A stretch of 46,137 bases of DNA from a virus (lineage: Duplodnaviria; Heunggongvirae; Uroviricota; Caudoviricetes), in IMG/VR virus record IMGVR_UViG_644736364_000003; one strand, 5' to 3'. This document shows, piece by piece, positions 21,626 to 23,187 of this stretch; position 1 is the first letter of the stretch, and every line of letters starts with the position of its first letter. Under the pieces are notes generated by a model that did not search any database, was not told where the DNA came from, and worked only from the letters and a program-made list of their open reading frames with translations. A program made the position numbers and the translations under genes.

Positions 21626-22606
21626 TGGCAAACGCAAAACTGCGTTATCGGAAAAATCAAAGCATTACGAGAACTGAGCAACGGCTATCCATTACAAAGC
21701 CCATCTACGGGTGGGCTTGATAATGAAACCGGAATTTATTCTTGGCAACCAGTTACGGCAGTACCACGAAACAACCCAAGCCAGTAAGTGGGGAAATAAC
21801 ACTGGCAGCCACTGAAAGATGAAGCTCCTGCCTTAAGGCAAAAAAGATTCTTTGTGGTGGCGGACTGATGGAAAGACATCGGTTATTGCAGAGGCCATTC
21901 AATGAGTGGTCTCGACAATGGCTTATACCCTACACGGGATAACTTAACTGATATCCCTTTTAAAGGATAAAGGTATTCAAGCCTGACACATCATGCGCTG
22001 TATCGTCGCCGTATTCCTGCATTAACAGAGACCGCAGCCCGACAGGGAGACTCCTCTGCGCGAGTGTGCGGGGATAATCAAAAACGATACACACCGGGGT
22101 TTACCGCGTTAACGGAGCGCGGCGTTGTCCCCTCATAGTCGCCTGTCCGGTGCGATGGTGGAAGAAACCGGATGTTTATCACTATTAATTGATGACACAG
22201 AAATGGATTCATTGAATTTCAGCACGTTTTTGTATTCGTGTTATTGAACATCTGTTTATTTTACTTTTAACATATTGATAATAAAAAGAGCTGTAAATCT
22301 TTAGATGAGTCGATTTTGTCCGGGGAAGTTCAAATGGATTTTATGCTGACGGTTTCTGGTGTGGTTATCCTGTCCATTGCTTATACTGCAGATAAATATG
22401 GCTGCCATTTGTTATCACGTATTGGCGCTTATTGTTCGTTGATGCTGATTTTCTCGTCGCTTTTTTTTGAGTAAGTTATATTAATTATAACAAATAATTT
22501 TCTGTGTTATTTTTTCAGGCTATCCCGTCAGAGGGGAAGCCTGTACTGCCGGGGAGCGAATGGAAAACTGATGTGTCCGGTAACTGCGTGTTCTGTGAAC
22601 ACCATG

Positions 22607-22792
22607 TTACTTAATTATGTAATTCATACCCGAACTCTCTGTTGACAGCCTTCTTCTGCAGGCTTCAATAACCCACGCTGAAAAGTTTCCTGAACCTTTC
22701 AGATCAAGAGCGATGTTAATTTGTTCAATCATCTGGTTTGGAAATCGGATGTTGCGGGTTGTTGTTCTGCGGGTTCTGTTCTTTGATGACAT
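22607..22792 (-). CDS. Ribbon-helix-helix (CopG/Arc/MetJ-like) small DNA-binding protein
   Basis: 61 aa; basic N-terminus then RNIRFPNQMIEQINIAL...GNFSAWVIEACRRRL beta-strand/helix pattern. Confidence 0.5.
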   Translation of the reverse strand: MSSKNRTRRTTTRNIRFPNQMIEQINIALDLKGSGNFSAWVIEACRRRLSTESSGMNYIIK

Positions 22793-22999
22793 AATGTTTC
22801 CCCATATTCAGTGTTGCTGATTTGTATTATCTGAAGTTGCTTTTACGTTAATTTGATGCAGATCAATTAATACGATACCTGCGTCATAATTGATTATTTC
22901 TCGTGGTTTGATGGCGTACACACATGTTGTGATAAACCTTATATAGATGATAATCATTATCATTTTCGTGGGTCCTTTCCGGCGATCCGACCGGTTACG

Positions 23000-23011
23000 G
23001 GGCGGCGACCT
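23000..23011 (+). other. cos: cosN cohesive-end site (lambda-type 12-nt overhang GGGCGGCGACCT); cosQ upstream, cosB downstream
   Basis: GGGTCCTTTCCGGCGATCCGACCGGTTACG|GGGCGGCGACCTCGCGGTTTTTCACTATTTATGAAAATTTT nearly matches lambda right-end/left-end junction as recalled. Confidence 0.7.
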
Positions 23012-23187
23012 CGCGGTTTTTCACTATTTATGAAAATTTTTCAGGGAAAATCGTGTCGGTACTTCTCGAATATAACTTTTTGTTTTTTTTAATATTGCAT
23101 CCGTAAAGGTCCGACATGAAAGTGTCCGAAAATGCCTTTTTCTGGCGTTTTCATGTCGGGCCTTGTATTTGATAATGGGTTGTTTTC

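Follow-up and report, generated by a model that had tools for sequence, protein, structure and literature searches.

The region examined here, positions 21626–23187 of a 46,137-nucleotide stretch of tailed-phage DNA (IMG/VR record IMGVR_UViG_644736364_000003; the whole stretch is referred to as the window), lies between a gene for a KilA-N/Rha-like protein and the gene for the small terminase subunit Nu1. It is very probably an ordinary variable segment of a lambda-like prophage, extending from the lysis cassette to the terminase genes and consisting of accessory DNA plus the cos site, whose blocks were inherited separately from one another. The blocks are, from left to right, a structured non-coding block, a ubiquitous conserved junction (the core), a module with a hydrophobic open reading frame (ORF) of 46 codons (p46), a minus-strand gene of the ynfO/ylcI family and a cos site. 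A preliminary description, made from the sequence alone, had presented the region as an accessory segment before a lambda-type cos lacking bor and containing a small gene of ribbon-helix-helix-like type as well as a short hydrophobic ORF; this picture holds.

Mosaic organization of the region

The block boundaries of the mosaic were mapped by blastn against relatives. A census of the architecture of 133 loci revealed variable slots on both sides of the core (21994–22175, no strand assigned) and three types of packaging genes downstream, the core itself being always positioned between Rz and the packaging genes. Of 5,426 Escherichia coli genomes, 4,144 contain the core, with a total of 11,129 places that are almost always unannotated; it is homologous to lambda 46868–46981, located between bor and lambdap78, as well as to the borD–ybcV spacer of DLP12. 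An exact-pattern scan over one genome per species placed it in Escherichia alone, plus a few contigs taken as mis-binned or contaminant. The slots of lambda and DLP12 follow the order bor, ybcV/lambdap78, ybcW/lambdap79, ylcI, cos and nohD/Nu1, with other fillers than those of the window. A further joint of the mosaic falls inside the ynfO gene, as described below.

The core would thus be the piece that lambda has between bor and lambdap78, kept here though bor is gone, and is probably a relic or a homology anchor without a demonstrable function of its own. Its interpretation as a structured RNA was rejected (z-scores of −0.63 and +0.37, with an unconvincing alifold consensus). The same is true for the 68-residue ORF that is annotated over this segment in phage P27: in the window it is interrupted, and 98 unique copies agree neither in its start nor in its frame. 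Of the 11,129 places, 690 are on plasmid records, so the junction may also be present in phage-plasmids or in prophage remnants located on plasmids.

The segment 21000–23300 is 100% identical to a prophage of the uropathogenic E. coli MS7163, in which PGAP annotates a KilA-N protein, a hypothetical 46-residue protein, YlcI/YnfO and the small terminase subunit. The only ORF of at least 60 codons lying wholly within 21626–23187 is that of the 61-residue protein on the minus strand, exactly as previously described. The reported lack of a bor-like lipoprotein was borne out by tblastn with lambda Bor, which found no match in the whole window; homologues of YbcV and YbcW were likewise found nowhere in the window by tblastn.

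The characterization of the region as mostly non-coding stands in that 21626–22333 contains no conserved ORF, and falls short in that the same stretch comprises both the structured block and the core. Degraded genes, for which a check had been advised there, did not appear in any convincing form, since PHROG scans of all small ORFs in 21626–22333 gave nothing meaningful. A decayed protein gene as the cause of the conservation was therefore rejected, there being no conserved ORF and the candidate frames being broken; the 62-residue Chlobot ORF, for example, is frameshifted in the window. No Rfam family was detected in the region, either with the whole window at the gathering score or with 21500–23300 at E-values up to 5, where the matches were at most at chance level, and ARAGORN found no tRNA in the region.

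The structured block and its hairpin motif

The block at 21686–21975 (plus strand) is conserved, strongly structured and non-coding, and travels with genes of the KilA-N, Rha and HkbL type in P22-like and lambda-like phages. Copies with 90–98% identity occur in 209 phage records, P22, HK620, ST64T and mEp234 among them. Most of these belong to P22-like phages from Salmonella, E. coli and Shigella, where rha or hkbL lies on one side of the block and, on the other, the genes that come before the small terminase gene. The whole block or part of it is also present in 2,578 E. coli genomes, mostly without annotation. Folding of the block as RNA yielded a z-score of −5.22 for the plus strand (0 of 200 shuffled sequences) and −3.71 for the minus strand. 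In an alignment of 62 unique copies only 7 of the 116 paired columns are variable versus 31 of the 115 unpaired ones (Fisher p = 1.4e-5), and the frequent polymorphisms found in the stems all preserve pairing.

Six hairpins can be distinguished in the block, two of them being copies of one motif. Copy 1, ATTACAAAGCCCATCTACGGGTGGGCTTGATAATG, occupies 21691–21725 and copy 2, ATTGCAGAGGCCATTCAATGAGTGGTCTCGACAATG, occupies 21885–21920, both on the plus strand; the covariance model R1 recovers them in cmsearch with 58.4 bits (E 1.4e-9) and 55.7 bits (E 5.4e-9), respectively, and the stems of copy 2 differ from those of copy 1 by compensatory changes. The motif consists of an outer stem of 4 bp (AUUR/YAAU), an invariant 2x2 internal loop (CA/GA), an inner stem of 9–10 bp and a loop of 3–6 nt. 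Among 36 distinct variants, 97.6% of the cells pair, as compared with 87.5% after shuffling (0 of 500 shuffles reached the observed value) and 33–48% with the partner strand slid, and both-sided changes were seen at 8 of the 14 pairs. At one stem position the commonest pair is U-G, which indicates the late-sense strand.

All 15 matches of the covariance model lie on this late-sense strand, with one or two per locus, and the model found no match in the loci of lambda, DLP12, P27 and the O157 strain 86-24. The hairpins start at most 15 nt after a same-strand stop codon in 39% of cases versus 5% of random positions. Relatives carry extra genes (Gp49-family, DUF2829) or other inserts between the hairpin copies, and in Stx2a_F349 the DNA from hairpin to hairpin is deleted. 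The motif has no family in Rfam, and a literature search for the hairpin sequences returned nothing. The hairpins were also considered as intrinsic (Rho-independent) terminators; this was rejected, since their stems are followed by GAUAAUG or GACAAUG with no U-tract and a terminator scan skips them. Terminator-like hairpins within the late operon have been remarked upon for phage L and P22-like phages, with their role stated as unknown (PMC8022706).

From these features it may be proposed that the block accompanies late accessory genes of the KilA-N, Rha and HkbL type and that its hairpins are read on the strand of the late transcript. Most likely, they would act as intercistronic RNA hairpins, either protecting or processing the 3′ ends of upstream messages or stopping transcription that is not anti-terminated, while the repeated copies could double as points of homology at which cassettes are swapped or deleted. 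Taken to its full extent, the proposal is that the motif (AUUAC..stem..GAUAAUG) and the 290-nt block form a specific RNA element, hitherto undescribed, in the late operons of P22-like and lambda-like phages, an element that marks the ends of exchangeable cassettes, controls expression or processing, and serves as a joint for shuffling. In this complete form it is tentative and rather doubtful. The proposal in either form is weakened by the origin of the hairpin covariation in approximately three sequence types, i.e. few independent events, by the search pattern, which fixed parts of the outer stem of the motif, and by the conservation of the rest of the block (95% or more), too high for compensatory changes to be seen.

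Alternatively, the block might act as DNA, containing recombination or cassette-boundary sites or single-strand signals used in rolling-circle replication. Such a role would suit the Gp49-family genes and other inserts between the hairpin copies, the recurrence of breakpoints at block positions ~53/63 and 195, the hairpin-to-hairpin deletion in one phage, and the fact that both strands fold better than shuffled sequence. It is nevertheless clearly unlikely, because the polymorphisms G-U to A-U, U-G to U-A and C-G to U-G, like the prevalent U-G pair, maintain pairing on the late-sense strand only, the model matches have a single orientation relative to the late genes, the hairpins are placed just after stop codons, and no recombinase gene is associated with them. 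An RNA read from the late transcript is thus the interpretation kept here. In any case, the block and its hairpin family represent an uncatalogued structure that is widespread in temperate phages of Salmonella, Shigella and E. coli and may help to explain the processing of late-operon messages and the origin of mosaic joints; if the proposal is true, the element is both a regulatory signal and a joint for shuffling late-region accessory genes.

The 46-residue hydrophobic ORF

The small hydrophobic ORF that had been noticed on the plus strand was confirmed at 22334–22474, with precisely the translation originally given. It is co-oriented with the late operon and annotated in the identical MS7163 prophage (PGAP WP_000347013.1). 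The product, p46, has a grand average of hydropathy of 1.2 and two hydrophobic segments. Its module (22180–22620) was found at 796 places in 733 of the 5,426 E. coli genomes, among them O157:H7, O55:H7 and O104:H4 strains, and is at least 95% identical in all carrier genomes but one, strain SHP24, whose module is 76.7% identical and has an annotated ORF of 45 codons at the position of p46.

It is the comparison with SHP24 that makes p46 likely to be a real gene. The two sequences differ at 24 nucleotides, 11 synonymous and 13 non-synonymous, corresponding to a ratio of non-synonymous to synonymous substitution rates (dN/dS) of 0.31. The replacements are conservative (V/I, S/A, M/I), the loop ADKYG..LLSRIGAYC is invariant and the two hydrophobic segments are preserved. 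Furthermore, despite a DNA identity of only 77%, both sequences keep this frame open (45 vs 46 codons) and have stops in the other two, and a Shine-Dalgarno-like sequence (GGGGAA/GAGGAA) is conserved. Variation within the ORF is also lower than in either flank. The preliminary description was to be regarded as refuted if the region proved to be conserved in intact relatives as plain intergenic sequence with the small ORF not conserved at the protein level; only half of this was found, as p46 is conserved as a protein in its one divergent relative.

Outside E. coli no homologue of p46 was found by word-indexed or exhaustive profile (HMMER) searches, whose matches were limited to copies from E. 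coli, fragments and repetitive proteins of spurious similarity. No family in Pfam, NCBIfam, PHROG or PADLOC was matched even at E-values of 0.1 to 1, and a literature search with the accession and the sequence gave nothing. The lack of homologues and of family matches fits the opposite explanation, i.e. that p46 is a chance open frame in conserved regulatory or non-coding DNA whose annotation was propagated by gene finders, as do the frameshifts in certain copies (P0010, L137), the conservation of the upstream flanking DNA, higher than that of the ORF, and the weak bias of the variants towards the third codon position (10/7/11 over all p46 variants). The dN/dS value, moreover, rests on a single divergent homologue and 24 differences, and promoters, transcript ends and the translation of p46 are all inferred. 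In view of the open frame, the conservative replacements, the invariant polar loop and the conserved Shine-Dalgarno-like sequence in SHP24, a chance frame seems somewhat unlikely.

As a gene, p46 would probably encode a small membrane protein with two membrane helices, an orphan restricted to E. coli, filling the slot in which lambda and DLP12 carry ybcW. Owing to its co-orientation with the late operon, p46 may be expected from the late transcript starting at pR′, and possibly also from a conserved AT-rich block upstream of it (22254–22288, plus strand), a candidate promoter or regulatory segment that is identical in the divergent SHP24, as seen in the alignment of the window with SHP24 and O157 86-24. 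This block may be a promoter; the sigma-70-like matches near it are all weak, including a minus-strand one at 22297–22269. What speaks against such an assignment is that the promoter scan found sigma-70-like sites in no excess over shuffled sequence, so that no promoter was assigned to p46. With its presence in ~13% of complete E. coli genomes, O157:H7 and O104:H4 included, and its wide distribution among pathogenic strains, p46 is a candidate for studies of late or lysogenic small proteins of prophages.

The ynfO/ylcI gene

The gene at 22607–22792 (minus strand), described initially as an orphan, is in fact a member of the ubiquitous ylcI/ynfO family (DUF3950). Its 61-residue product matches PF13132 with 67.5 bits (cut-off 25), NF041551 with 35.2 bits (cut-off 30) and phrog_949 with an E-value of 9e-32. 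The family comprises 790 clusters at 90% identity, in which residues 1–49 are near invariant and the C-terminal tails hypervariable, and ynfO-like DNA was counted 9,562 times in the 5,426 complete E. coli genomes, 4,183 of which carry it. A gene of this type, oriented against the late operon, directly precedes the packaging module in lambda, in DLP12, where ylcI has the equivalent place, in O157 prophages and in most of those of the 133 surveyed loci whose sequence reaches that far. In lambda an intact ylcI of 64 codons, identical in product to YlcI of E. coli K-12, is positioned just left of cos (NC_001416, 48109–48303, minus strand), and this copy is left without annotation both in the RefSeq record NC_001416 and in J02459. 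A literature search revealed no functional work on ylcI, ynfO or DUF3950.

The assignment of the protein to the ribbon-helix-helix class is plausible but weakly supported. In its favour, the monomer is predicted to begin with an extended basic segment, followed by two helices, and hhalign places the NIRFP..GSGNFS pattern in register with NLRWP..GRSVNS of Arc, at a weak E-value of 0.019; a faint PHROG match to HicB-like proteins was also obtained. On the other hand, Foldseek and sequence searches of the PDB were negative. Elsewhere in the window, a translated frame at 12540–12647 (plus strand) is weakly similar to YlcI/YnfO (tblastn, E 0.004–0.007) and may be another small protein of the ribbon-helix-helix-like type.

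Alignment with lambda demonstrated that a mosaic breakpoint lies within ynfO at ~22645, i.e. at codon ~49. The conserved N-terminal part consequently belongs to the cos-proximal block, and the tail alone to the block of p46. Codons 1–49 share 85% DNA identity with lambda, as does the region upstream of ynfO. Within the latter, a block of 41 bp (22859–22899, no strand assigned) is 100% identical to lambda 48370–48410 and contains a 13-bp inverted repeat (22862–22874/22882–22894), making it a candidate promoter or operator of ynfO. Since ynfO is antisense to late transcription, we propose that it is expressed from a promoter of its own, and YnfO, as a probable small DNA-binding protein, would probably bind the perfectly conserved palindrome upstream of its own start. 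No ynfO promoter was assigned, the candidates being weak and sigma-70-like sites no more frequent than in shuffled sequence. An ORF of 51 codons directly upstream on the same strand (22808–22963), matching phrog_9395 with an E-value of 3e-39, contains a 41-nt stretch identical to lambda at the DNA level; it was not accepted as a gene, the lambda version differing in both start and length, and is probably a spurious frame over conserved regulatory DNA.

The constant position of ynfO immediately upstream of the packaging module and the location of the 41-bp block between ynfO and cosQ could also mean that YnfO is tied to packaging, binding near cos and modulating late read-through or the access of terminase, instead of being an independent accessory regulator. 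We regard this as quite improbable, given that ynfO also adjoins HNH/TerS packaging modules without a lambda cos. The minimal cos of lambda is not known to include the region between ynfO and cosQ. An accessory regulator acting on its own remains the favoured role of YnfO.

The proposed toxin–antitoxin relationship

A regulator next to a small membrane peptide had called to mind, as a speculation, type I toxin and toxin–antitoxin loci. That reading, in which p46 would be a type I-like membrane toxin or YnfO a ribbon-helix-helix antitoxin, has found no support and is very improbable. It draws on the small size and hydrophobicity of p46 and on the position of the p46 module, adjoining ynfO in every locus listed. 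Yet p46 and ynfO do not share an operon but converge, with 132 nt between them, and p46 stands beside only ~8% of the ynfO copies (796 vs 9,562 places), so that neither the co-oriented operon nor the co-inheritance of a type II system is found. Elsewhere, the slot next to ynfO is occupied by ybcW/ybcV (lambda, DLP12) or, in many phages, empty, and YbcW is not hydrophobic. The breakpoint at codon ~49 of ynfO points in the same direction, since the putative DNA-binding part is shared with lambda whatever the neighbour.

As for type I toxins, p46 is hydrophobic but matches neither Hok, Ldr, Ibs, TisB, ShoB nor any other known toxin family, and neither of the two small proteins matches PADLOC models. 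No Rfam small RNA was found in 21500–23300, and the promoter scan detected no antisense promoter overlapping p46, the sole minus-strand promoter-like site pointing away from it. Type I toxins typically have a single helix, in contrast to the two hydrophobic segments of p46. p46 is one of the fillers that the variable slot can have; no toxin–antitoxin logic joins it to YnfO. By analogy, the pair would behave at most like ybcW–ylcI of DLP12, a transcriptional-overlap pair given as a convergent excludon for K-12 (PMC12288877).

The cos site, flanking genes and other features of the prophage

The lambda-type cosN that had been placed at about 23000 is located exactly at 23000–23011 (plus strand), where the 12-nt cohesive-end sequence GGGCGGCGACCT matches the left end of lambda without a difference. 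A GGGTCCT sequence at 22970–22976 (plus strand), 30 nt upstream of the cosN nick region, is taken by us to be cosQ on the basis of its identity and position in lambda. The segment from cosQ to cosN is identical to lambda at 40 of 42 positions (95%). It is followed at 23012–23187 (plus strand), upstream of Nu1, by a cosB-like region with divergent R-type repeats, including an inverted pair (23106–23132/23138–23164); this region is 61% identical to lambda cosB, with a distance to the Nu1 start of 188 nt vs 190 nt. An identical cosN, a cosQ ~30 nt upstream and cosB repeats before Nu1 are the features of a lambda-type cos, and the site is probably one whose cosB/Nu1 (terminase) specificity differs from that of lambda.

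The left boundary of the region is formed by the KilA-N/Rha-like gene (21104–21625, plus strand), named by PGAP as encoding a KilA-N domain-containing protein, with a Pfam KilA-N match at E 8e-22, a weak match to ORF11CD3 and matches to PHROG 129/518 (transcription regulator, Rha-like). The same protein weakly matches the PADLOC candidate defence model PDC-S22 (E 1.2e-5), probably by similarity at the level of the domain only. The right boundary is Nu1 (23188–23736, plus strand; Pfam Phage_Nu1, E 1.9e-81). The following terminase large-subunit gene (~23708–25634, plus strand) is marked as frameshifted by PGAP in MS7163, and in the list of ORFs of the window its frame ends at 24730; this may reflect a defective prophage or an assembly error.

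Outside the region, 6645–6833 and 7511–7696 (plus strand) each contain an isrK-like small RNA followed by a C4 antisense RNA (Rfam, 59–81 bits); these two tandem copies look like a duplicated antirepressor-control module of the P1/P7 type. The segment 15595–16183 corresponds in position to stx of Stx phages; it contains three tRNA genes and, after them, STnc100 (131.7 bits, plus strand), abutted by AsxR on the minus strand exactly at the gathering score (63 bits).

Comparison with known systems

Among known systems, the right ends of lambda and DLP12 (from Rz to Nu1 or nohD) closely resemble the region in plan. The order of slots is equal, an antisense gene of the ylcI type adjoins cos on its left and has its first 49 codons well conserved, the cosQ–cosN segment is nearly identical and the core is homologous. 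They differ in that the window lacks bor, ybcV and ybcW, carrying the KilA-N gene with its structured tail and p46 instead, as well as in the diverged cosB and in the C-terminal tail of YnfO. The counterpart of the p46/ynfO pair in DLP12, the ybcW–ylcI excludon, likewise combines a small plus-strand ORF with a convergent ylcI-family gene at the equivalent position; p46, however, is unrelated to YbcW, and a transcript overlap between p46 and ynfO is hypothetical.

Prophages of the O157:H7 type (strain 86-24, phage PPyecE_EH1910) share 21991–22801, i.e. the core, p46 and ynfO, at ~95% identity, with an identical p46 protein. Their packaging genes are nevertheless of the HNH/TerS type and not lambda cos/Nu1, and their left neighbour is an ORF of 75 codons in place of KilA-N. 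The structured block has its counterparts in the intergenic regions rha–orf80 of P22 and hkbL–hkbM of HK620 (Lederbergvirus), which are 91–96% identical to it and have the hairpin directly after the upstream stop codon; in these phages further small genes and a terminase of the headful (pac) type come after the block, and P22 has one hairpin copy only.

With regard to YnfO, the N-I-R-F-P..(helix)..G-S-G-N-F-S..(helix) pattern and the two helices after an extended basic N-terminus are reminiscent of the ribbon-helix-helix proteins Arc, Mnt, CopG and TacA, whereas the scores of YnfO against them are all weak, the likeness being drawn from the sequence pattern and a predicted monomer. Finally, the hairpins are comparable with mRNA stabilisers of the repetitive extragenic palindromic (REP) and bacterial interspersed mosaic element (BIME) type and with the terminators predicted within the late operon of phage L, all being stable hairpins just 3′ of cistrons in a long polycistronic transcript. 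The hairpins of the window are distinguished from these by the lack of a U-tract, the conserved flanks (AUUAC..GAUAAUG), the invariant 2x2 internal loop and the lack of an Rfam family.

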